A stretch of DNA of 64,000 nt from Escherichia coli (GCF_051903065.1 NZ_CP178439.1); one strand, 5' to 3'. Positions 15,575 through 54,843 are shown, counted from the stretch's first letter. Translations and numbers: made by a program. Notes: a model not told the origin generated them from the sequence alone.

Positions 15575-15594
15575 TACTGTATGTATGTACAGCA
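15575..15594. promoter_or_regulatory. LexA (SOS) box-like site TACTGTATGTATGTACAGCA
   Basis: CTGT-N8-ACAG consensus read directly, about 200 bp upstream of gene 15799. Confidence 0.5.
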
Positions 15595-18779: not shown

Positions 18780-19599
18780 GGCACTGTTGCAAATAGTCGG
18801 TGGTGATAAACTTATCATCCCCTTTTGCTGATGGAGCTGCACATGAACCCATTCAAAGGCCGGCATTTTCAGCGTGACATCATTCTGTGGGCCGTACGCT
18901 GGTACTGCAAATACGGCATCAGTTACCGTGAGCTGCAGGAGATGCTGGCTGAACGCGGAGTGAATGTCGATCACTCCACGATTTACCGCTGGGTTCAGCG
19001 TTATGCGCCTGAAATGGAAAAACGGCTGCGCTGGTACTGGCGTAACCCTTCCGATCTTTGCCCGTGGCACATGGATGAAACCTACGTGAAGGTCAATGGC
19101 CGCTGGGCGTATCTGTACCGGGCCGTCGACAGCCGGGGCCGCACTGTCGATTTTTATCTCTCCTCCCGTCGTAACAGCAAAGCTGCATACCGGTTTCTGG
19201 GTAAAATCCTCAACAACGTGAAGAAGTGGCAGATCCCGCGATTCATCAACACGGATAAAGCGCCCGCCTATGGTCGCGCGCTTGCTCTGCTCAAACGCGA
19301 AGGCCGGTGCCCGTCTGACGTTGAACACCGACAGATTAAGTACCGGAACAACGTGATTGAATGCGATCATGGCAAACTGAAACGGATAATCAACGCCACG
19401 CTGGGATTTAAATCCATGAAGACGGCTTACGCCACCATCAAAGGTATTGAGGTGATGCGTGCACTACGCAAAGGCCAGGCCTCAGCATTTTATTATGGTG
19501 ATCCCCTGGGCGAAATGCGCCTGGTAAGCAGAGTTTTTGAAATGTAAGGCCTTTGAATAAGACAAAAGGCTGCCTCATCGCTAACTTTGCAACAGTGCC
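18780..19599 (+). mobile_element. tnpA: IS26 copy 2, transposase CDS 18843..19547, Asn at residue 184 (KRIINATLG)
   Basis: Both 14-bp IRs present; GGC to AAC codon change relative to copy 1; flanks do not match. Confidence 0.95.
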
Positions 19600-24704: not shown

Positions 24705-25589
24705 TTGGCGATTCGTCGCCGGCGGCGCATGTTCATACTCTTCGCCGAGCGAAAAGTTGGGGAACAGCACGGGCCGGCCGCGCAAGGCGTGCTGGCAGCC
24801 GTGCAGACCCTGCGTGAGATGAACGCCGACAACCTGCGCAAGGTGCCGGCCGATGCACCCACGGCCTTCATCAAGCCGCGCTGGAAGCCGCTGGTGATCA
24901 CCCCGGAAGGCCTCGACCGGAAATTCTACGAAATCTGCGCCCTGTCCGAGCTGAAGAACGCCCTGCGCTCCGGCGACATCTGGGTCAAGGGCTCGCGGCA
25001 GTTCCGCGACTTCGACGACTACCTGCTGCCGGCCGAGAAGTTCGCCGCACTCAAGCGCGAGCAGGCCCTGCCCCTGGCGATCAACCCGAACAGCGACCAG
25101 TACCTGGAAGAGCGTTTGCAGCTGCTGGACGAGCAGTTGGCCACCGTCACCCGCCTGGCCAAGGACAACGAGCTGCCCGATGCCATCCTCACCGAGTCAG
25201 GGCTGAAAATCACCCCGCTGGATGCGGCGGTGCCGGATCGGGCGCAGGCGCTGATCGACCAAACCAGCCAGTTACTGCCGCGCATCAAGATCACCGAACT
25301 GCTGATGGACGTGGACGACTGGACGGGCTTCAGCCGCCACTTCACCCACTTGAAGGACGGGGCCGAGGCCAAAGACAGGACGTTGCTGCTGTCCGCAATC
25401 CTCGGTGATGCGATCAACCTCGGGCTGACCAAGATGGCCGAGTCGAGCCCCGGCCTGACCTACGCCAAGCTGTCCTGGCTGCAAGCCTGGCACATCCGCG
25501 ACGAAACCTATTCGGCGGCCTTGGCCGAGCTGGTCAACCACCAGTATCGCCACGCCTTTGCCGCCCACTGGGGCGACGGCACGACCTCA
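24705..25589 (+). pseudogene. tnpA: Tn3-family (Tn1721-type) tnpA internal fragment, 3'-truncated by IS26
   Basis: 348-aa ORF with Tn3-family TnpA central-region similarity, ends at the IS26 boundary 25590. Confidence 0.7.
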
Positions 25590-26409
25590 GGCACTGTTGC
25601 AAAGTTAGCGATGAGGCAGCCTTTTGTCTTATTCAAAGGCCTTACATTTCAAAAACTCTGCTTACCAGGCGCATTTCGCCCAGGGGATCACCATAATAAA
25701 ATGCTGAGGCCTGGCCTTTGCGTAGTGCACGCATCACCTCAATACCTTTGATGGTGGCGTAAGCCGTCTTCATGGATTTAAATCCCAGCGTGGCGTTGAT
25801 TATCCGTTTCAGTTTGCCATGATCGCATTCAATCACGTTGTTCCGGTACTTAATCTGTCGGTGTTCAACGTCAGACGGGCACCGGCCTTCGCGTTTGAGC
25901 AGAGCAAGCGCGCGACCATAGGCGGGCGCTTTATCCGTGTTGATGAATCGCGGGATCTGCCACTTCTTCACGTTGTTGAGGATTTTACCCAGAAACCGGT
26001 ATGCAGCTTTGCTGTTACGACGGGAGGAGAGATAAAAATCGACAGTGCGGCCCCGGCTGTCGACGGCCCGGTACAGATACGCCCAGCGGCCATTGACCTT
26101 CACGTAGGTTTCATCCATGTGCCACGGGCAAAGATCGGAAGGGTTACGCCAGTACCAGCGCAGCCGTTTTTCCATTTCAGGCGCATAACGCTGAACCCAG
26201 CGGTAAATCGTGGAGTGATCGACATTCACTCCGCGTTCAGCCAGCATCTCCTGCAGCTCACGGTAACTGATGCCGTATTTGCAGTACCAGCGTACGGCCC
26301 ACAGAATGATGTCACGCTGAAAATGCCGGCCTTTGAATGGGTTCATGTGCAGCTCCATCAGCAAAAGGGGATGATAAGTTTATCACCACCGACTATTTGC
26401 AACAGTGCC
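25590..26409 (-). mobile_element. tnpA: IS26 copy 3, transposase CDS 25642..26346, Asn at residue 184
   Basis: IRs at both ends; inverted relative to copy 2. Confidence 0.95.
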
Positions 26410-26566
26410 CTTCATCATTATGAATATGAAAAAGCCGAATGCGGCGACTACCACATTTATCCCCGGGGCTATGGACGCAGCAACTTTGCAGGGCGCAATC
26501 GAAAAAGCTCGCGGGGCCTAAAGTTACTTTCACTTTTGATGAGTACGGCCATGCCGGTCATGGCCG

Positions 26567-29810: not shown

Positions 29811-29955
29811 TATGGGTGACCTGGTCAGCAAAAATAGCATTGACCGTTTAGAGCGATTTCATTCTTTGCTGGCGGGTCAGTACTGGACGTCCACTGACAG
29901 CATCCCTGAAGAGGGTATTGTGGCAGGGGATACACTGCTCATTACGTCTTTGCGT
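29811..29955 (+). pseudogene. N-terminal 48 codons of an unknown gene, cut by IS26
   Basis: ATG with GGAAGGA upstream; reading frame runs into the IS26 left end. Confidence 0.3.
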
Positions 29956-30775
29956 GGCACTGTTGCAAATAGTCGGTGGTGATAAACTTATCATCCCCTT
30001 TTGCTGATGGAGCTGCACATGAACCCATTCAAAGGCCGGCATTTTCAGCGTGACATCATTCTGTGGGCCGTACGCTGGTACTGCAAATACGGCATCAGTT
30101 ACCGTGAGCTGCAGGAGATGCTGGCTGAACGCGGAGTGAATGTCGATCACTCCACGATTTACCGCTGGGTTCAGCGTTATGCGCCTGAAATGGAAAAACG
30201 GCTGCGCTGGTACTGGCGTAACCCTTCCGATCTTTGCCCGTGGCACATGGATGAAACCTACGTGAAGGTCAATGGCCGCTGGGCGTATCTGTACCGGGCC
30301 GTCGACAGCCGGGGCCGCACTGTCGATTTTTATCTCTCCTCCCGTCGTAACAGCAAAGCTGCATACCGGTTTCTGGGTAAAATCCTCAACAACGTGAAGA
30401 AGTGGCAGATCCCGCGATTCATCAACACGGATAAAGCGCCCGCCTATGGTCGCGCGCTTGCTCTGCTCAAACGCGAAGGCCGGTGCCCGTCTGACGTTGA
30501 ACACCGACAGATTAAGTACCGGAACAACGTGATTGAATGCGATCATGGCAAACTGAAACGGATAATCAACGCCACGCTGGGATTTAAATCCATGAAGACG
30601 GCTTACGCCACCATCAAAGGTATTGAGGTGATGCGTGCACTACGCAAAGGCCAGGCCTCAGCATTTTATTATGGTGATCCCCTGGGCGAAATGCGCCTGG
30701 TAAGCAGAGTTTTTGAAATGTAAGGCCTTTGAATAAGACAAAAGGCTGCCTCATCGCTAACTTTGCAACAGTGCC
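29956..30775 (+). mobile_element. tnpA: IS26 copy 4, transposase CDS 30019..30723, Asn at residue 184
   Basis: Both IRs present; flanks ctttgcgt / cactgatc do not match. Confidence 0.95.
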
Positions 30776-31220
30776 CACTGATCCGCATGCCCGTTCCATA
30801 CAGAAGCTGGGCGAACAAACGATGCTCGCCTTCCAGAAAACCGAGGATGCGAACCACTTCATCCGGGGTCAGCACCACCGGCAAGCGCCGCGACGGCCGA
30901 GGTCTTCCGATCTCCTGAAGCCAGGGCAGATCCGTGCACAGCACCTTGCCGTAGAAGAACAGCAAGGCCGCCAATGCCTGACGATGCGTGGAGACCGAAA
31001 CCTTGCGCTCGTTCGCCAGCCAGGACAGAAATGCCTCGACTTCGCTGCTGCCCAAGGTTGCCGGGTGACGCACACCGTGGAAACGGATGAAGGCACGAAC
31101 CCAGTGGACATAAGCCTGTTCGGTTCGTAAACTGTAATGCAAGTAGCGTATGCGCTCACGCAACTGGTCCAGAACCTTGACCGAACGCAGCGGTGGTAAC
31201 GGCGCAGTGGCGGTTTTCAT
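30776..31220 (-). pseudogene. intI1: Class 1 integron integrase intI1, N-terminal 148 codons, truncated by IS26
   Basis: [49 protein letters not shown]... ends at the IS26 boundary. Confidence 0.85.
31105..31133 (+). promoter_or_regulatory. Integron cassette promoter Pc, hybrid type (-35 TGGACA, 17-bp spacer, -10 TAAACT); P2 lacks the GGG insertion
   Basis: Hexamers read at 31105..31110 and 31128..31133 inside intI1. Confidence 0.6.
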
Positions 31221-41134: not shown

Positions 41135-41810
41135 AGAACACCTGCCTTTACTTCCTTATTTTACCAATAATTTCAGCTAAGAGATTTTGATCTAAATGTT
41201 CGTTAATCGTTAAGCTTACTTCTGTACATGCCCTTATATAGATGTTCTGAACGGTGTTATTTCTGACAATGGACTTAAATGTCAGTAACGCCATTACACA
41301 GTTGGCCAACGCGAACAGCAGTATTGGTCGCAACAAAAAATGAAAGAAAAATCCCCCAAATGAAGGGAAAAAACGGAAGAACAGTCGAACGACAGGCACA
41401 AAAAAACCCGACTGGTAATCGGGCTTTTTCGTGTTTTCCAGTCCTGAGTTGGTGGCTCTGACTGGAGGAAGATACTCTACATCCAACATCCACAATATTA
41501 TGGCACTAGACACCAGTTGTCTAGTTTGACTTCAGATTGTCTGTCAATGGCCATTTCTTTAAATGAATTTTATGCGTGCATCTGTATAATCTTTGCGTTG
41601 GCGCTGTACAGTGTGCCTCCCTTGCTTCTAAACCCTGCGCTATCTGGGTATGAACGAATTAAAGTCCTGGCTGAACAAACAGGTGGTGCTGTGTTCAGTG
41701 CTCTGGCAGGAGGAAGGTACTCTACATCCAACAATGTGAGAGAGCCGTTGTGACAGGCGATGTATGAGCAAGCAACGGCGACTTCCTCCAGTATCAACCT
41801 GGAGAAACGG

Positions 41811-41906
41811 ATGATTAACCTGTTAATCATCGTTCTCAGGGCTGTGGTCGCCGTTGCAAACGCGCTGATTGCAGTTCTGGAACTGATCCGTCAGTTCATC
41901 GACTGA
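41811..41906 (+). CDS. Candidate type I toxin, DinQ/TisB-like 31-aa hydrophobic peptide (MINLLIIVLRAVVAVANALIAVLELIRQFID)
   Basis: Hand-translated ORF; LELIR motif shared with DinQ as recalled; SD within a CTCCAG-N7-CTGGAG hairpin; terminator-like hairpin at 41928..41954. Confidence 0.45.
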   Translation: MINLLIIVLRAVVAVANALIAVLELIRQFID

Positions 41907-41972
41907 TGACTGCGGAAACGTAACTAAGGGCAGGAAGTGCACCGCTTCCTGCCCTTTAACAAAGGAGGATTT

Positions 41973-42152
41973 ATGGATTTTATGAGCATTTTGGGGCGCT
42001 GTTTACTTCTTCCTTTCCCTGTTGCGATGTTTGTCGGTTGCCTGTTTCCAGGCATTGATGATCGTTTTACTGGAATGTTCATGAGTTTTATTGTCGGTTG
42101 TCTATCGTGGTATATCACCAAGCCAAAACCGCAAAAGGCTGAGGTCGCGTAA
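41973..42152 (+). CDS. Small membrane protein (59 aa)
   Basis: Strong RBS AAGGAGG 6 nt upstream of ATG; two hydrophobic helices. Confidence 0.4.
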   Translation: MDFMSILGRCLLLPFPVAMFVGCLFPGIDDRFTGMFMSFIVGCLSWYITKPKPQKAEVA

Positions 42153-42538
42153 GCGGCCTTTTTTACGTCTCTCGTTTAATTCCTCGCCATTCTGTCCAGA
42201 AATAGTATTGCGGCTAATCAAGCCAATTCCTACGTCTTTTCGCTGTTGCACGATCTAAAAGAAAATATGGGAAAATTTCATGAAAGTATGGTACTAAAGG
42301 GTCTTTAATTCCTTTATCTTGTTCCTTCAACTGCACAGTATCTCGTAAAAACCAACAAGCCGGTTGTTTAAAAAACGCTCTTAGCGTAGGATGTTTTCCA
42401 TTTTCCAAGTGGAACCCAAGTACGATGCCCGCGAAAAAGACAGCCCTCTTATGAAGAGGGCTGTTATCTGATATAGGCTTGTTATGGTCTCACTCTTGAT
42501 TAATCAGGTGTATGTGCAACCTTGGTGCACACAATCGA

Positions 42539-44440
42539 TTATGCAGCTTGATGATCTGAAGTGTTACCGGAAGTATCTTCGGTTCGTTTTTTGTTTGTGA
42601 TGGATTCACTTTTATCTCGCAAGGCTGAGTCTATGACGTTAAACACCTTTTCCCACCGAGAAATCCAACCGCATATAGGTTGAACACGACATTTTTCCAG
42701 GAAGAAATTTAATAAGTTAGTTTTTTTATTATCTTGCACTTTGAATGGTTCAATTACATCATCGGCATCAACAGATTTTCCTCCGATAAACCACGACGGA
42801 TGGGTTTCCATTGCGTCAGAAATGAAATCGTCAGGGAAGAGGCCTTCAATAGCAAAACCACTTCTTACAGAAATATAGTCTTTATTTGACTCAAATCTAA
42901 TTTGTTTTTTACCAAAGTAGCTTTGTAATCTGGTTCTTTCTTTGACCCCAGCTTCATCACCGTCAAAAACAGATATTACGGGGACATCTTTAGAAATAAA
43001 CTCGTAGCACCCTTTCAAGAATCCCCCAAGTTGACTGACTCCACCAAACTCATCAACTTTAGCACTCCTCAGAAAAGGCCATCTGTTCTTAAACTCATCA
43101 TCTTCAGATGTCAATTTCAATATTGATTCTATATATTGTTTGTCGGTGATACCTTCAACGAAAACTGCACTACTTGATATGTTAAAGAAATCAGAAAATC
43201 TGACCCCAAGATTTTCTCTTATGCTTGCAACTGCATTAAATCTTTTTTCATGCTTTTTATCTTTTGTAACACCGGCGTCATCTTTATATAACTCAATGAT
43301 CTTACTTGGCTCATCACTGACAAATGATAAGGAATGAGTTGTAATAAGAACATAAGCAACATCCATCAGTGATTTGAAAATGTGATTACATGACCGGCCT
43401 AATGAGGGATGCAAGAAAGACTCAGGCTCCTCAACCATCCAAATCGTTTTCTTACCTAGAGTAAGTTTTCTCTCTGAAATAGATTTAAATGAAGAAAATA
43501 AAGATAAGCATTGTAGCCCCATACCTTTACTCGATATCACATTCTCAATAGTATCTTTTATTGAAACCTCAAAGCGACCAAATAACTCATCAAGAGATGG
43601 CGGAGCTTTAATAATAAAGCTACAGTCATCTATACCGCTTAGAATCATTTCATTTGTTATCTTTTCAGATACTTCCAACAGTTTATCATGAATCACTTGA
43701 ACCGATGTTTTCATGGCTGAAGCTACTTCACTCCTAACATATGGAACTAATAGATTATGATATATATCATCAATACTTTTTGACGATGGTATATACACAC
43801 ACTCAAAACTAGAAAGTATTTTTTCTATGAACCTTCTTTCAACAGATGTATACATGGAGGAAGTTACTTCAGGTTTCCTCTTGTAACCTTTAAAGACAGT
43901 GTAAAAGTAATTGTTTTTATTAGATATTGTCAGATGTACGGTCACTTCGTTTTGAGGTGACTTTAACCTGGAGTCATCAATCATGTTAAACAGCTGCAAA
44001 TATCTATCTCTCAAACTTAGCTTTCTGCCTCTTGATTGAGTTGGTTTTGATTCTTGTTGTTTAGAGCTGCCATCATCAAATGAAATAGAATTACTAGGCT
44101 CTTCTTGCTCCCCTAAAACACCAAGTTCAATAATCGAGTCATCATCGTCATCATCATCGTCTTGGCTCAAATCCTCAGAGACATCATCTAGCTCACTTTC
44201 AGAAAAAGTAAATCTTACAGCAAAACTAGTTTGTCCTTGCTTAACACCATGTGGCTTATCTTTTTCATAGTCATATAAGTCAGGATTAAATTTTCCTTCA
44301 AAAAAAACCCTCATAGCTTTTAATAGGTTTGTTTTACCACTGTTGTTTTGCCCAACAATGGTTAATCCATTAAAGTTATCAGAGGATATCTCCCCTGAAA
44401 TAGACCTATACTGAGAAACTTTAAATGATACTATTTCCAT
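42539..44440 (-). CDS. OLD-family ABC-type ATPase fused to a TOPRIM nuclease domain (633 aa)
   Basis: Walker A GQNNSGKT, Walker B IWMVEEPESFLHP, H-loop ITTHS, then TOPRIM-like VFVEGITDKQ and FDGDEAG; eight-Asp run; AT-rich. Confidence 0.7.
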   Translation of the reverse strand: MEIVSFKVSQYRSISGEISSDNFNGLTIVGQNNSGKTNLLKAMRVFFEGKFNPDLYDYEKDKPHGVKQGQTSFAVRFTFSESELDDVSEDLSQDDDDDDDDSIIELGVLGEQEEPSNSISFDDGSSKQQESKPTQSRGRKLSLRDRYLQLFNMIDDSRLKSPQNEVTVHLTISNKNNYFYTVFKGYKRKPEVTSSMYTSVERRFIEKILSSFECVYIPSSKSIDDIYHNLLVPYVRSEVASAMKTSVQVIHDKLLEVSEKITNEMILSGIDDCSFIIKAPPSLDELFGRFEVSIKDTIENVISSKGMGLQCLSLFSSFKSISERKLTLGKKTIWMVEEPESFLHPSLGRSCNHIFKSLMDVAYVLITTHSLSFVSDEPSKIIELYKDDAGVTKDKKHEKRFNAVASIRENLGVRFSDFFNISSSAVFVEGITDKQYIESILKLTSEDDEFKNRWPFLRSAKVDEFGGVSQLGGFLKGCYEFISKDVPVISVFDGDEAGVKERTRLQSYFGKKQIRFESNKDYISVRSGFAIEGLFPDDFISDAMETHPSWFIGGKSVDADDVIEPFKVQDNKKTNLLNFFLEKCRVQPICGWISRWEKVFNVIDSALRDKSESITNKKRTEDTSGNTSDHQAA

Positions 44441-45182: not shown

Positions 45183-46031
45183 GGGGAGCCCGCAGAATTC
45201 GGAAAAAATCGTACGCTAAGGTTTTCCGGGCATCCGTAAGGGCCGAAACTTCCCGTCTTCCAGTCTGCGGCTCTGCCGCCAGACGTAATCGCCGGTTAGG
45301 TTGATGTGCTCCCAGCCCAGCGGCGACAGGAATTGCAGCAGCTCGCCGTCCACCGGCTTGCCGGCCTCGACCAACCCCTGGGTGGCGCGTTCCAGGTACA
45401 CCGTGTTCCACAGCACGATAGCCGCCGTCACCAGGTTGAGGCCGCTGGCCCGGTAGCGCTGCTGCTCGAAGCTCCGATCCCTGATTTCCCCAAGGCGGTT
45501 GAAGAACACCGCCCTGGCCAGCGAGTTGCGCGCCTCACCTTTGTTCAGGCCGGCATGCACGCGGCGGCGCAGTTCAACACTTTGCAGCCAGTCCAGGATG
45601 AACAGCGTGCGCTCGATCCGGCCCAGCTCGCGCAGGGCCACGGCCAGTCCGTTCTGGCGCGGGTAGCTGCCGAGCTTGCGCAGCATCAGCGAGGCGGTGA
45701 CGGTGCCCTGCTTGATCGAGCTGGCCAGGCGCAGGATGTCGTCCCAGTGGGCACGCACGTGCTTGATGTTCAGGGTGCCGCCGATCAGCGGGCGCAACGT
45801 CGGGTAGGCTTGCACGCCCTGCGGCACGTACAGCTTGGTTTCGCCGAGGTCGCGGATGCGCGGCGCGAAGCGGAAGCCTAGCAGGTGCATCAGGGCAAAG
45901 ACGTGATCGGTGAAGCCGGCCGTGTCGGTGTAGTGCTCCTCGATCCGCAGGTCGGACTCGTGGTACAGCAGGCCGTCGAGCACATAGGTGGAATCGCGGA
46001 CGCCGACATTCACCACGCGGGTGCTGAACGG
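45183..46031 (-). mobile_element. tnpA: Second Tn1721-type transposon end: 38-bp IR (45183..45220) plus tnpA 3' fragment, truncated by IS26 52 bp further 3' in tnpA than the copy at 17879..18779
   Basis: Identical IR and TnpA C-terminus; retained tnpA is 52 bp shorter than in the first copy. Confidence 0.85.
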
Positions 46032-46851
46032 GGCACTGTTGCAAATAGTCGGTGGTGATAAACTTATCATCCCCTTTTGCTGATGGAGCTGCACATGAAC
46101 CCATTCAAAGGCCGGCATTTTCAGCGTGACATCATTCTGTGGGCCGTACGCTGGTACTGCAAATACGGCATCAGTTACCGTGAGCTGCAGGAGATGCTGG
46201 CTGAACGCGGAGTGAATGTCGATCACTCCACGATTTACCGCTGGGTTCAGCGTTATGCGCCTGAAATGGAAAAACGGCTGCGCTGGTACTGGCGTAACCC
46301 TTCCGATCTTTGCCCGTGGCACATGGATGAAACCTACGTGAAGGTCAATGGCCGCTGGGCGTATCTGTACCGGGCCGTCGACAGCCGGGGCCGCACTGTC
46401 GATTTTTATCTCTCCTCCCGTCGTAACAGCAAAGCTGCATACCGGTTTCTGGGTAAAATCCTCAACAACGTGAAGAAGTGGCAGATCCCGCGATTCATCA
46501 ACACGGATAAAGCGCCCGCCTATGGTCGCGCGCTTGCTCTGCTCAAACGCGAAGGCCGGTGCCCGTCTGACGTTGAACACCGACAGATTAAGTACCGGAA
46601 CAACGTGATTGAATGCGATCATGGCAAACTGAAACGGATAATCGGCGCCACGCTGGGATTTAAATCCATGAAGACGGCTTACGCCACCATCAAAGGTATT
46701 GAGGTGATGCGTGCACTACGCAAAGGCCAGGCCTCAGCATTTTATTATGGTGATCCCCTGGGCGAAATGCGCCTGGTAAGCAGAGTTTTTGAAATGTAAG
46801 GCCTTTGAATAAGACAAAAGGCTGCCTCATCGCTAACTTTGCAACAGTGCC
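46032..46851 (+). mobile_element. tnpA: IS26 copy 8, transposase CDS 46095..46799, Gly at residue 184
   Basis: Both IRs present; flanks do not match. Confidence 0.95.
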
Positions 46852-48482: not shown

Positions 48483-50100
48483 GAGTGACGGGCACTGGCT
48501 GGCAATGTCTAGCAACGGCAGGCATTTCGGCTGAGGGTAAAAGAACTTTCCGCTAAGCGATAGACTGTATGTAAACACAGTATTGCAAGGACGCGGAACA
48601 TGCCTCATGTGGCGGCCAGGACGGCCAGCCGGGATCGGGATACTGGTCGTTACCAGAGCCACCGACCCGAGCAAACCCTTCTCTATCAGATCGTTGACGA
48701 GTATTACCCGGCATTCGCTGCGCTTATGGCAGAGCAGGGAAAGGAATTGCCGGGCTATGTGCAACGGGAATTTGAAGAATTTCTCCAATGCGGGCGGCTG
48801 GAGCATGGCTTTCTACGGGTTCGCTGCGAGTCTTGCCACGCCGAGCACCTGGTCGCTTTCAGCTGTAAGCGTCGCGGTTTCTGCCCGAGCTGTGGGGCGC
48901 GGCGGATGGCCGAAAGTGCCGCCTTGCTGGTTGATGAAGTACTGCCTGAACAACCCATGCGTCAGTGGGTGTTGAGCTTCCCGTTTCAGCTGCGTTTCCT
49001 GTTTGCCAGCCGGCCCGAGATCATGGGGTGGGTGCTGGGCATCGTTTACCGCGTCATTGCCACGCACCTGGTCAAGAAAGCGGGCCATACCCACCAAGTG
49101 GCCAAGACGGGCGCGGTCACCCTGATCCAGCGTTTTGGATCGGCGCTCAATCTGAATGTTCACTTCCACATGCTGTTTCTCGACGGTGTGTATGTCGAGC
49201 AATCCCACGGCTCAGCGCGTTTCCGCTGGGTCAAGGCGCCGACCAGCCCAGAGCTCACCCAGCTGACGCACACCATCGCCCACCGGGTGGGTCGCTATCT
49301 GGAACGGCAAGGCCTGCTGGAACGGGATGTCGAAAACAGCTATCTGGCCTCGGATGCGGTGGATGACGACCCGATGACACCCCTGCTGGGGCACTCGATC
49401 ACTTACCGTATCGCTGTCGGTTCACAGGCGGGGCGAAAGGTGTTCACTTTGCAAACTCTGCCGACCAGTGGTGATCCGTTCGGTGACGGGATTGGCAAGG
49501 TAGCCGGGTCCAGCCTGCACGCCGGCGTGGCGGCCAGGGCCGATGAACGCAAGAAGCTCGAACGGCTGTGCCGGTACATCAGCCGCCCGGCGGTATCCGA
49601 GAAGCGGCTGTCGTTAACACGAGGCGGCAACGTGCGCTACCAGCTCAAGACGCCGTACCGGGACGGCACCACGCACGTCATTTTCGAACCATTGGATTTC
49701 ATTGCAAGGCTGGCCGCCCTGGTACCGAAGCCCAGAGTCAACCTAACCCGCTTCCACGGGGTGTTCGCACCCAACAGTCGGCACCGGGCGTTGGTCACGC
49801 CGGCAAAACGGGGCAGGGGCAACAAGGTCAGGGTGGCTGATGAACCGGCAACACCAGCACAACGGCGAGCGTCGATGACATGGGCGCAACGGCTCAAGCG
49901 TGTTTTCAATATCGACATCGAGACCTGCAGCGGCTGCGGCGGCGCCATGAAAGTCATCGCCTGCATTGAAGACCCTATAGTGATCAAGCAGATCCTTGAT
50001 CACCTGAAGCACAAAGCCGAAACCAGCGGGACCAGGGCGTTACCCGAAAGCCGGGCGCCACCGGCTGAGCTGCTCCTGGGTCTGTTTGACTGACGAGCCT
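48483..50100 (+). mobile_element. ISCR2 (IS91-like rolling-circle element), transposase CDS 48600..50093; element boundaries approximate
   Basis: 497-aa IS91-family transposase; a second partial copy of the first ~300 bp at 52767..53072 defines the 5' boundary. Confidence 0.75.
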
Positions 50101-53317: not shown

Positions 53318-54137
53318 GGCACTGTTGCAAATAGTCGGTGGTGATAAACTTATCATCCCCTTTTGCTGATGGAGCTGCACATGAACCCATTCAAAGGCCG
53401 GCATTTTCAGCGTGACATCATTCTGTGGGCCGTACGCTGGTACTGCAAATACGGCATCAGTTACCGTGAGCTGCAGGAGATGCTGGCTGAACGCGGAGTG
53501 AATGTCGATCACTCCACGATTTACCGCTGGGTTCAGCGTTATGCGCCTGAAATGGAAAAACGGCTGCGCTGGTACTGGCGTAACCCTTCCGATCTTTGCC
53601 CGTGGCACATGGATGAAACCTACGTGAAGGTCAATGGCCGCTGGGCGTATCTGTACCGGGCCGTCGACAGCCGGGGCCGCACTGTCGATTTTTATCTCTC
53701 CTCCCGTCGTAACAGCAAAGCTGCATACCGGTTTCTGGGTAAAATCCTCAACAACGTGAAGAAGTGGCAGATCCCGCGATTCATCAACACGGATAAAGCG
53801 CCCGCCTATGGTCGCGCGCTTGCTCTGCTCAAACGCGAAGGCCGGTGCCCGTCTGACGTTGAACACCGACAGATTAAGTACCGGAACAACGTGATTGAAT
53901 GCGATCATGGCAAACTGAAACGGATAATCAACGCCACGCTGGGATTTAAATCCATGAAGACGGCTTACGCCACCATCAAAGGTATTGAGGTGATGCGTGC
54001 ACTACGCAAAGGCCAGGCCTCAGCATTTTATTATGGTGATCCCCTGGGCGAAATGCGCCTGGTAAGCAGAGTTTTTGAAATGTAAGGCCTTTGAATAAGA
54101 CAAAAGGCTGCCTCATCGCTAACTTTGCAACAGTGCC
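53318..54137 (+). mobile_element. tnpA: IS26 copy 9, transposase CDS 53381..54085, Asn at residue 184
   Basis: Both IRs present; flanks do not match. Confidence 0.95.
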
Positions 54138-54843
54138 TGATGAAGCCGGGTGTGCCGGTGATCCCAAGCGCTTCGCCCAGCTGCATGTTGCCGGAGATCA
54201 CGTTTTCATATCGGTTTTTTTCCCTGTCAGAAAACGTGCTGTTAAACCCTGACTTATCCACCACAGTATTAAAGTCGCTGAGTTCGAATTTGCGTTGAGA
54301 GGTCATGAAGGTATGAGCCACAGCCATCAGGTTGTTGTGGTATTTACGATAGGCTTCAGCACCGAAATTCTGATAGACGTGCAGACCCGTAGCGGCCCCC
54401 ATGGCAGATACAGGTTTTGAACCGGCAAAAATCGGGAATTCTTTAAAGAAGAATTTTACATCTTTGCTCTGATTCATTACCGATTCAACAACAGGTGTAA
54501 CCCGCATGCAGTAAATACACTGATAGTCGAAGAACTCGATTACCGCGACGTCGGCGTCATCCGGGCCGATGTTTGGCGTCTCCTTGGTATCCAGCAGAGC
54601 TGGCGCATATGGAATTATTCGTTCCACTGAGGCACTTACGTTCTGATTTTCCAGCGCCTTACCTGCTTCCACTAAATAATGGGGATTTTTTACCAGGTAA
54701 GTAGCGGCAATTTTGCCAATTTCTTCCTCACTGAGCACCTTCGGTTTAAAATAAGTTGCCGCGATTAACGCCGAGGCAGCGGTAGCAATTACCGCAGAAA
54801 TTAAAATCGTGGCCATCGGTTTTAAATAAAATTCTTTAGACAT
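54138..54843 (-). pseudogene. Thioredoxin-fold DsbA/DsbC-like protein, 3'-truncated by IS26
   Basis: CIYC active-site motif, N-terminal TM/signal; reading frame runs into IS26. Confidence 0.55.

Follow-up and report, generated by a model that had tools for sequence, protein, structure and literature searches.

A probable agrB/dqlB type I toxin-antitoxin module, related to dinQ/agrB, in an accessory segment of an IncHI2-type resistance plasmid

Here we report that the region 41399-41957 of the window, by which we mean the whole 64-kb stretch of DNA that was analysed, very probably corresponds to a complete agrB/dqlB type I toxin-antitoxin module, a member of a plasmid-borne sister family of dinQ/agrB. 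We also hold with high confidence the reading that, taken as a whole, best explains the locus, namely that it is an agrB/dqlB module that would confer plasmid addiction by means of a dinQ-type RNA switch. The agrB/dqlB system found here is not new, and has been both described and annotated before. Definition of the dql family dates from 2016 (PMC5066626), and the label that RefSeq gives to the identical DNA, present in about 190 plasmids, is dqlB (WP_000609149.1, 'DinQ-like type I toxin DqlB'). A megablast comparison with PLSDB showed that a 1.4-kb region is 100% identical in many plasmids having sizes of 215-315 kb, and returned 190 records with an identity of at least 99%; the one record inspected for its plasmid type is IncHI2A.

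An earlier note on this DNA had proposed a candidate type I toxin resembling DinQ at this position, a proposal that is borne out by the matches to the NCBIfam DqlB and Rfam AgrB models and by the RefSeq annotation; raw sequence was thus enough for the first-stage reader to recognise a toxin-antitoxin locus of type I. Direct reading of positions 41200-42400 and re-indexing by script recovered all the features that had been listed, each at its coordinates. The view that the toxin ORF is unannotated, however, applies only to the track available to that reader, as RefSeq already names the gene. Likewise, the proposed boundaries of the locus (41455-42152) do enclose the listed features, but the left edge has to be moved, since the AgrB gene reaches 41399. 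The practical value of the locus is modest, and it opens no new biological question. An Rfam scan of all 64 kb at the gathering threshold, together with a scan of 40900-42600 at E<=10, revealed no further type I systems and no second agr gene, and no Rfam match for sok was present in the 64-kb window.

The toxin gene, dqlB, is the 31-codon ORF at 41811..41906 on the plus strand, present as the earlier note had stated, with its ATG at 41811 and its TGA at 41904-41906. The encoded peptide, MINLLIIVLRAVVAVANALIAVLELIRQFID, is predicted to be a hydrophobic, helical toxin of 31 aa, and its residues 1-31 align with positions 1-31 of the NCBIfam profile NF041473 ('DinQ-like type I toxin DqlB') with a score of 72.8 bits (cut-off 35). 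The DinQ model, NF041472, matched only the C-terminal 13 residues and scored 25.3 bits, which is under its cut-off of 30, and the peptide is therefore placed in the DqlB sister family. Only the DqlB and DinQ models were matched in NCBIfam at E<=1, and a TisB family was not among these matches, with the caveat that HMMER filters can drop weak matches. Thus, the likeness to DinQ that had been noticed stands, in the form of membership of the DqlB sister family, whereas the likeness to TisB holds as an analogy and not as a family relationship. The peptide is identical to pOXA-48 DqlB at 26 of 31 positions and to an IncX3-type DqlB at 28 of 31. The dN/dS values of dqlB compared with its homologues range from 0.04 to 0.16, which indicates that the gene is under strong purifying selection.

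Downstream of the stop codon, a perfect 10-bp stem-loop had been noted at 41928..41954. This structure was confirmed; its arms are GGGCAGGAAG (41928-41937) and CTTCCTGCCC (41945-41954), and it can be extended to the 12-bp terminator hairpin of dqlB (41926..41956, plus strand), which has a 7-nt loop and is followed by UUUAAC, a layout that is the same as in the dinQ terminator. In an alignment, the arms of this terminator covary in IncX3, IncX5, IncL and K-12 sequences. A 48-codon extended version of the ORF, starting at the ATG at 41760, was rejected: it lacks a Shine-Dalgarno (SD) sequence, and the length of the SD-hairpin loop differs by non-multiples of three among homologues, so that these do not preserve the reading frame of the extension.

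The gene for the antitoxin RNA, AgrB, adjoins dqlB and is transcribed divergently from it. It is located on the minus strand at 41399..41488, and would produce an RNA of about 88-90 nt consisting of a single-stranded 5' tail, a stem-loop (SL1) and a Rho-independent terminator (41431-41399). The Rfam model for AgrB (RF02891) matches 41399-41486 on the minus strand over its full length (model positions 1-84) with 68.8 bits, the gathering score being 40. This is the one match to the model in the whole 64-kb window; K-12 contains two. The predicted fold of the RNA displays the free 5' tail, the stem-loop and the terminator, and has a minimum free energy (MFE) of -33.1 kcal/mol (z = -4.76 compared with dinucleotide shuffles). 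A promoter-like site for agrB, called by a consensus scan, is present on the minus strand at 41495..41523, between the two motif copies described below and 7 nt upstream of the predicted 5' end of AgrB. It is composed of TAGACA (41523-41518), a 17-nt spacer and TAATAT (41500-41495), and matches the consensus at 9 of 12 positions. A 7-bp inverted repeat, CTAGACA-N5-TGTCTAG (41506-41524), overlaps the -35 of agrB. The suspicion that the ORFs of the annotation track on this strand are artefacts is supported by their lack of conservation and of family matches. Neither of the two ORFs on the minus strand (41148-41513 and 41570-41830) is maintained as a reading frame elsewhere or matches a family, and both were rejected; moreover, the annotated 'hypothetical protein' at 41148-41489 crosses both the AgrB terminator and a homology boundary at 41277, and its ORF is lost in other plasmids.

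The connection between the agrB gene and dqlB resides in a direct repeat, in which 41455-41488 and 41700-41733 are identical at 31 of 34 positions at a distance of 245 bp. These motif copies had been described with the same spacing at 41458..41488 and 41703..41733; they are present, and their extent is slightly longer (34 nt). Even with 10 mismatches allowed, the 34-mer has no further match in the 64-kb window, and by our own estimate the chance expectation for such a repeat pair in 64 kb is about 1e-6. The motif had also been considered reminiscent of the agrA/agrB repeats. The relation to agr is real, but the two copies do not represent two sRNA genes; they are one gene and its target. Copy 1 (41455..41488, minus strand) forms the 5'-terminal 34 nt of the AgrB gene, and the RNA of this antisense tail is complementary to 41700-41733. 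Copy 2 (41700..41733, plus strand), the putative AgrB target, is located in the 5' UTR of dqlB, 78-111 nt upstream of the ATG; it contains element 2 of the leader (see below), and is equivalent to G88-A119 of dinQ. The 34-nt duplex between tail and leader comprises 31 Watson-Crick pairs, two G-U pairs (41706 and 41717) and one A-A mismatch (41708), and has a predicted dG of -61.6 kcal/mol, compared with -20.6 +/- 3.2 for 500 shuffled tails.

The pairing was compared between the window and nine further loci, present on IncX1, X3, X4, X5, IncI and IncHI2/N plasmids and in K-12. Across these 10 loci, the AgrB tail and its target are very different between lineages, yet they covary. In the cross-pairing matrix of the 10 loci, most AgrB tails pair best, or equally best, with the leader of their own sequence type; the exceptions are HI2N_a, which prefers other leaders, and the close pairs W/X1 and X3/HI2N_b. 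This covariation of tail and target is comparative evidence that argues for selection on the pairing. When gaps are introduced, the repeat reaches 41440-41488 and 41663-41733, respectively, and the two gaps of 11 nt coincide exactly with the two arms of SL2 of the leader. It is because of this gapped repeat lacking the SL2 arms that the agrB gene seems to be an ancient duplicate of the dqlB leader in shortened form.

The region upstream of dqlB has a counterpart in E. coli dinQ, whose -10 aligns with a TATAAT hexamer at 41585..41590 on the plus strand. Positions T99-A100-T101 and T104 of this -10 are invariant in 11 of 11 aligned loci, K-12 dinQ included. The dqlB promoter was not called by the consensus promoter scan because its -35 is poor. 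By homology with the +1 of dinQ, transcription is predicted to start at G41597, and the predicted full-length mRNA (41597..41957, plus strand) would end after the terminator. The choice of G41597 finds its justification in K-12, where the same rule reproduced exactly the published dinQ coordinates, which are U16-C28 for sequence 1, G94-G106 for sequence 2, U167-U178 for sequence 3, A182-G187 for sequence 4 and G88-A119 for the agrB site (PMC5066626). All four switch elements, as well as the -10 and the +1, align with the experimentally mapped elements of dinQ.

Element 1 of the leader (41620..41629), equivalent to U16-C28 of dinQ (PMC5066626), is predicted to pair with element 2 in the full-length transcript and so to act as a lock; in the MFE fold of the transcript starting at +1, 41620-41629 is paired with 41708-41717. 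Element 2, GGAGGAAG (41709..41716), is located within the AgrB target and shows perfect 8-bp complementarity to element 3, CUUCCUCC (41782..41789). Element 4, CUGGAG (41799..41804), includes the SD and forms the 3' arm of a hairpin predicted to sequester it (41786-41804). The sequence confirmed that the SD, GGAG at 41801-41804 and 6 nt before the ATG, is contained in a CTCCAG (41786-41791)-N7-CTGGAG (41799-41804) hairpin, as had been proposed. In dinQ, processing at +44 creates the translatable mRNA, and the K-12 alignment places the equivalent 5' processing site at about 41658. Homology with most other plasmid groups starts at 41638-41662.

The leader contains additional structures. SL2 (41670..41699) corresponds to dinQ SL2, G57-U87, and its outer stem shows compensatory changes in 7 of 8 pairs. 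SL4 (41744..41779), a consensus structure with compensatory pairs, corresponds to the SL4 of dinQ, and a conserved hairpin of 9 bp (41810..41831) involves the start codon. RNAalifold analysis of 10 homologous leaders identified compensatory changes in 18 of the 44 consensus pairs. The structured leader that had been perceived earlier is thus real, being the published dinQ/dql architecture (PMC5066626), and RNA folding and pairing, which the earlier note had named as a check, agree with this: the mRNA has a predicted MFE of -144 kcal/mol (z = -5.86 compared with dinucleotide shuffles), the z value of the sRNA is given above, and the 34-nt duplex is strong. A kissing interaction between the loop of AgrB SL1 (GCCACC) and the invariant loop of leader SL2 (GGUGGUGC) was considered and rejected, being not significant and without cognate specificity; the complementarity of the loops amounts to about -12 kcal/mol, compared with -8.4 +/- 2.4 for shuffles, and 7% of the shuffles, or 36% in the case of K-12, were as good.

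The predicted energetics are consistent with a translational switch. In the fold of the full-length transcript the SD is closed, with a probability of being unpaired of <= 0.01. Forcing the pairing between elements 2 and 3, by which the SD is opened, costs 3.6 kcal/mol in the full-length transcript and 0.6 kcal/mol after truncation at 41658, and when 41700-41733 is blocked, mimicking bound AgrB, the SD closes again (P unpaired <= 0.01). The K-12 dinQ control displays the same trend, with a cost that falls from 8.0 to 1.9 kcal/mol on truncation and an SD that is closed upon blocking. In the RNAfold MFE structure of the truncated mRNA, the SD hairpin is still closed, as it is in the K-12 control, and the opening is to be understood as a shift towards equal energies only.

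We propose that the module functions as follows. A LexA-independent promoter (-10 at 41585-41590) would generate a dqlB mRNA of ~360 nt starting at G41597. This full-length mRNA would be translationally silent: element 1 (41620-41629) would hold element 2 (41709-41716), and element 3, left free, would close the hairpin over the SD (41786-41804). Removal of ~60 nt from the 5' end, near 41658, would allow element 2 to pair with element 3, which would open the SD. The divergently transcribed AgrB (about 90 nt, 41488 to 41399) would pair through its single-stranded 5' tail with 41700-41733 and sequester element 2, such that the SD hairpin would re-form, and the AgrB:leader duplex would probably become a substrate for RNase III. 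If the plasmid is lost, AgrB would decay faster than the toxin mRNA, and the 31-aa DqlB would be made, insert in the inner membrane, and kill or arrest the plasmid-free cell. Such post-segregational killing would stabilise the plasmid. The transcription starts, the processing site, the relative half-lives of the RNAs and the RNase III step are features that we infer by homology.

As regards the toxicity of DqlB of this plasmid and the killing it may cause, we infer these from homologues that have been tested, with two validations of the dql family in 2025. The DqlB of pOXA-48 is toxic, produces ghost cells and is neutralised by agrB in trans; furthermore, forced loss of pOXA-48 resulted in killing, from which cells were rescued by agrB alone (PMC12365149). 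When agrB is missing, the locus on the IncX3 plasmid pOXA-484 is toxic; this locus also makes a test plasmid more stable (PMC12317039). Our literature search found no paper naming both DinQ and IncHI2. A module of this kind could keep the resistance region, or the plasmid, in a population without antibiotic selection, and would affect plasmid-curing strategies. A curing tool that supplies the antitoxin would need the cognate AgrB, because tail and target differ between plasmid groups.

Chromosomal dinQ is repressed by LexA, and the homology of our locus to dinQ/agrB raises the question of whether it would encode an SOS-induced stress toxin that is released on DNA damage, instead of a plasmid addiction function. 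The stretch 41100-42400 contains a single LexA-like site with at most one mismatch, of the type CTG-N10-CAG, which is CTGGCTGAACAAACAG at 41667-41682; its reverse complement is identical to the possible SOS box (heterology index 11.64) given upstream of dqlB on pTF2 (PMC12211044). However, with its position at +71 to +86 this site belongs to the transcribed leader, and as it is made up of SL2, which accounts for most of it, and conserved flanks, its presence is explained by RNA structure; between plasmids, the substitutions in the SL2 arms are compensatory. In addition, the operator of dinQ, CTGTATGATTATCCAG, overlaps the -10, whereas the aligned sequence of the window, CTGTATAATCTTTGCG, keeps the left half-site and has lost the right one. 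Perfect CTGT-N8-ACAG sites are absent from 41100-42400 (six occur elsewhere in the window), and DqlB showed no response in the pTF2 proteome (PMC12211044). SOS control as the main regulation was rejected, as the CTGT-N8-ACAG search with up to one mismatch and the alignment with the dinQ operator gave only a weak intragenic site. Apart from this weak leader site, the earlier statement that the locus has no LexA box is confirmed. We conclude that this dqlB copy would not be SOS-controlled, and regard a role as a DNA damage-released stress toxin as extremely improbable. The location of the module invites another explanation. Rather than in the backbone of the IncHI2-type resistance plasmid, it is found in an accessory segment that has a partial IS26 (39111-39411) on one side and an IS26 (46031-46851) on the other; IS26 occurs at least nine times in the window. 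Identity to an IncX1/X3 plasmid is 92% across the block 41277-42348, and the order dqlB, ORF59 and a gene for a 633-aa ATPase is the same as in the IncX1 plasmid pSH13-006_37. The segment is probably an IncX-derived piece that was captured into the resistance region. The position in an IS26 mosaic, together with the rarity of dqlB in the IncHI group (5.5% of the plasmids), means that the module could be an inert passenger, that is, an IncX1-type backbone fragment brought in by IS26 and having no role in maintenance. Decayed copies do occur elsewhere, as dqlB is frameshifted in pECOED and a truncated variant is found in L008 and L013. Here, on the other hand, the promoter and terminator of each gene, the 34-nt complementarity, the SD switch and the entire ORF are all intact, DqlB is identical to the IncX1 protein, and a toxin-antitoxin pair that stays together causes addiction at any location. 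It is thus very unlikely that the module is a mere passenger.

It is also possible, although unlikely, that the module functions as a unit of more than two genes. ORF59 (41973..42152, plus strand), at most a candidate member of the system, encodes a protein of 59 aa with two hydrophobic segments, has the SD AAGGAGGA, starts 66 nt after dqlB and possesses its own terminator (42141-42160 plus a T-run, the whole feature spanning 41973..42160). ORF59 could be co-transcribed with dqlB, the terminator of which is weak, by read-through and modulate or complement the toxin; or, alternatively, the toxin-antitoxin genes and an OLD-like ATPase-Toprim gene could form a defence island. As to the latter, the neighbouring gene at 42539-44440 matches the Old, AriA and GajA models, and its position is kept in IncX1. 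As to the former, ORF59 is intact directly after dqlB in every record of its lineage inspected (the window, IncX1, IncX4, IncHI2/N and IncK2/Z), even where dqlB is frameshifted; it is present in 713 plasmids, and its dN/dS of 0.29-0.45 indicates purifying selection. Its SD is strong and located 6 nt after the dqlB terminator, the tail of which is only UUU, and no plus-strand promoter-like site was called between the two genes. However, the same terminator ends dinQ in K-12, and the adjacency could merely reflect a shared IncX ancestry. Furthermore, ORF59 has no match in Pfam, NCBIfam or PADLOC, and a search for homologues returned only 'hypothetical' or 'putative membrane' proteins. It is also absent from the dqlB loci of IncI, IncL, IncX3 and IncX5, two of which have been found experimentally to be sufficient as two-part systems, and ORF59 is therefore not required for toxin-antitoxin function. 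That it is a functional third component of this module lineage, for example a toxin modulator expressed by read-through or a second membrane effector, seems improbable to us.

As a two-part agrB/dqlB addiction module, the locus can be compared with known systems. Like the DqlB-AgrB systems of pOXA-48 (IncL) and pOXA-484 (IncX3), it has a 31-aa peptide of the same NCBIfam toxin family (PMC12365149, PMC12317039), a single divergent agrB that is complementary to the 5' UTR over about 35 nt, no agrA and a conjugative plasmid as its carrier, and the leaders are 73-78% identical from about 41650 to the terminator. Differences are found in the leader, over its first 50-60 nt, and in the sequence of the AgrB tail and target, and due to the latter, cross-neutralisation with the pOXA-48 and pOXA-484 types is predicted to be poor (dG of -28 to -43 for cross-duplexes, compared with -62 for the cognate one). 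Moreover, the copy described here has ORF59 behind it and occupies an accessory region, bounded by IS26, of an IncHI2-type plasmid.

The K-12 DinQ-AgrA/AgrB system has a homologous C-terminal toxin motif, LELIR, and the same AgrB fold (PMC3567139, PMC5066626). It also shares the architecture of the leader (-10, +1, elements 1-4, SL2, SL4, SD hairpin and terminator) and the predicted mechanism, in which 5' processing would open the SD and AgrB binding would close it again. Unlike dinQ, our locus has no LexA operator, and contains one agr gene instead of two. DinQ has 27 aa and starts at a GTG, whereas the peptide here has 31 aa, starts at an ATG and scores under the DinQ model cut-off (25.3 vs 30); in addition, the context is a plasmid, and the role proposed here would be post-segregational killing and not a response to DNA damage. 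The likeness to TisB-IstR-1 is a functional analogy only: a small hydrophobic peptide of the inner membrane, a primary mRNA that is inactive until cleaved at its 5' end, and a divergent sRNA acting in trans, by which translation is repressed and cleavage by RNase III triggered (PMC5066626). No sequence-family relation to TisB was detected, and TisB is under LexA control, which our locus is not. With Hok-Sok of plasmid R1, finally, the module has in common that it is a plasmid-borne type I system that would act in post-segregational killing through a membrane peptide, with ghost cells as the outcome (PMC12365149). IncI plasmids carry hok/sok at a distance of about 1 kb from agrB/dqlB. Sok is encoded in cis, overlapping the leader of hok, whose mRNA becomes active through trimming at the 3' end, whereas the sRNA of our module has its gene at a separate site, at a distance of 245 bp, and activation is proposed to occur by 5' trimming.

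Alignment of agrB, the antitoxin sRNA gene of this module, with the leader of the toxin gene dqlB revealed that the stretch 41440-41488 is a gapped copy of the leader sequence at 41663-41733. The two 11-nt gaps in this alignment match exactly the two arms of SL2, a stem-loop of the leader, which suggests that agrB originated as a duplicate of the leader that subsequently lost SL2. In addition, a perfect 7-bp inverted repeat (CTAGACA-N5-TGTCTAG, 41506-41524) overlaps the -35 element of the putative agrB promoter; it could be a protein-binding site, or a chance match.

The dinQ locus of E. coli K-12 contains two agr copies (1268-1351 and 1499-1582 in the K-12 locus coordinates). The copy farther from dinQ, at 505 nt from the start codon, has near-perfect complementarity (-70.1 kcal/mol), and the complementarity of the nearer copy contains mismatches (-53.7 kcal/mol). 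In contrast to this arrangement, the plasmid has a single agrB, which is positioned like the nearer K-12 copy. The dqlB start codon itself is enclosed by a 9-bp hairpin (GAUGAUUAA/UUAAUCAUC, 41810-41831) that is kept in all homologues, and in K-12 dinQ it shows a compensatory change from A-U to G-C. This hairpin may constitute a second layer of translational occlusion.

Variations on this organization were found in other plasmid loci. Two loci (L008 and L013) contain a tandem pair of dqlB loci, in which one toxin is shortened to 27 aa. In the IncI plasmid loci L007 and L009, a hok/sok system (513-670 and 527-684, respectively; Rfam sok, 134 bits) is located about 1 kb upstream of agrB/dqlB, so that each of these plasmids has a pair of neighbouring type I addiction systems.

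Directly downstream of dqlB lies ORF59, an ORF for a 59-aa protein that, together with its own terminator, spans 41973-42160 on the plus strand (WP_000347021.1, "hypothetical protein"). It has a strong Shine-Dalgarno sequence, and its product contains two hydrophobic segments; Pfam, NCBIfam and PADLOC searches with it gave no match. The ORF is conserved (dN/dS of 0.29-0.45) and is present in 713 PLSDB records. On IncX1, IncX4, IncHI2 and IncK2/Z plasmids, dqlB is always immediately 5' of it. The next gene (42539-44440, minus strand) encodes a 633-aa ATPase-Toprim protein with an acidic run (DDDDDDDD). Based on its PADLOC matches to Old (6.7e-19), AriA (6e-18) and several GajA models, this protein is likely an OLD-family defence nuclease. 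The gene also follows dqlB-ORF59 on the IncX1 plasmid pSH13-006_37, at 97% nucleotide identity to the copy studied here.

The segment running from ramA (39941-40306, minus strand) through agrB/dqlB and the ATPase gene to a peptidase M14 gene is flanked on both sides by IS26 (39111-39411 and 46031-46851). It resembles a mosaic in which a fragment of an IncX1 backbone is combined with a ramA region of the Klebsiella type. Just upstream of agrB/dqlB lie two apparent gene fragments, a truncated 129-aa ORF adjoining ramA (40313-40702) and the 81-aa C-terminal part of an AraC-family regulator (40889-41134, plus strand), which are consistent with IS26-mediated truncations. Counting these two, IS26 occurs in the window in at least nine copies, either full or partial; further copies are located at about 849-1675, 18780-19599, 25587-26412, 29953-30776, 33026-33845, 35026-35846 and 53318-54141.

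Outside the module, six perfect LexA-box-like sites (CTGT-N8-ACAG) are present in the window, at 15577, 28266, 31233, 48565, 52849 and 55452. The site at 31233 may be part of the promoter region of a class 1 integron integrase, because it lies about 80 bp from an Rfam AAC_AAD_leader/attI match (31310-31382). Those at 48565 and 52849 have the same sequence.
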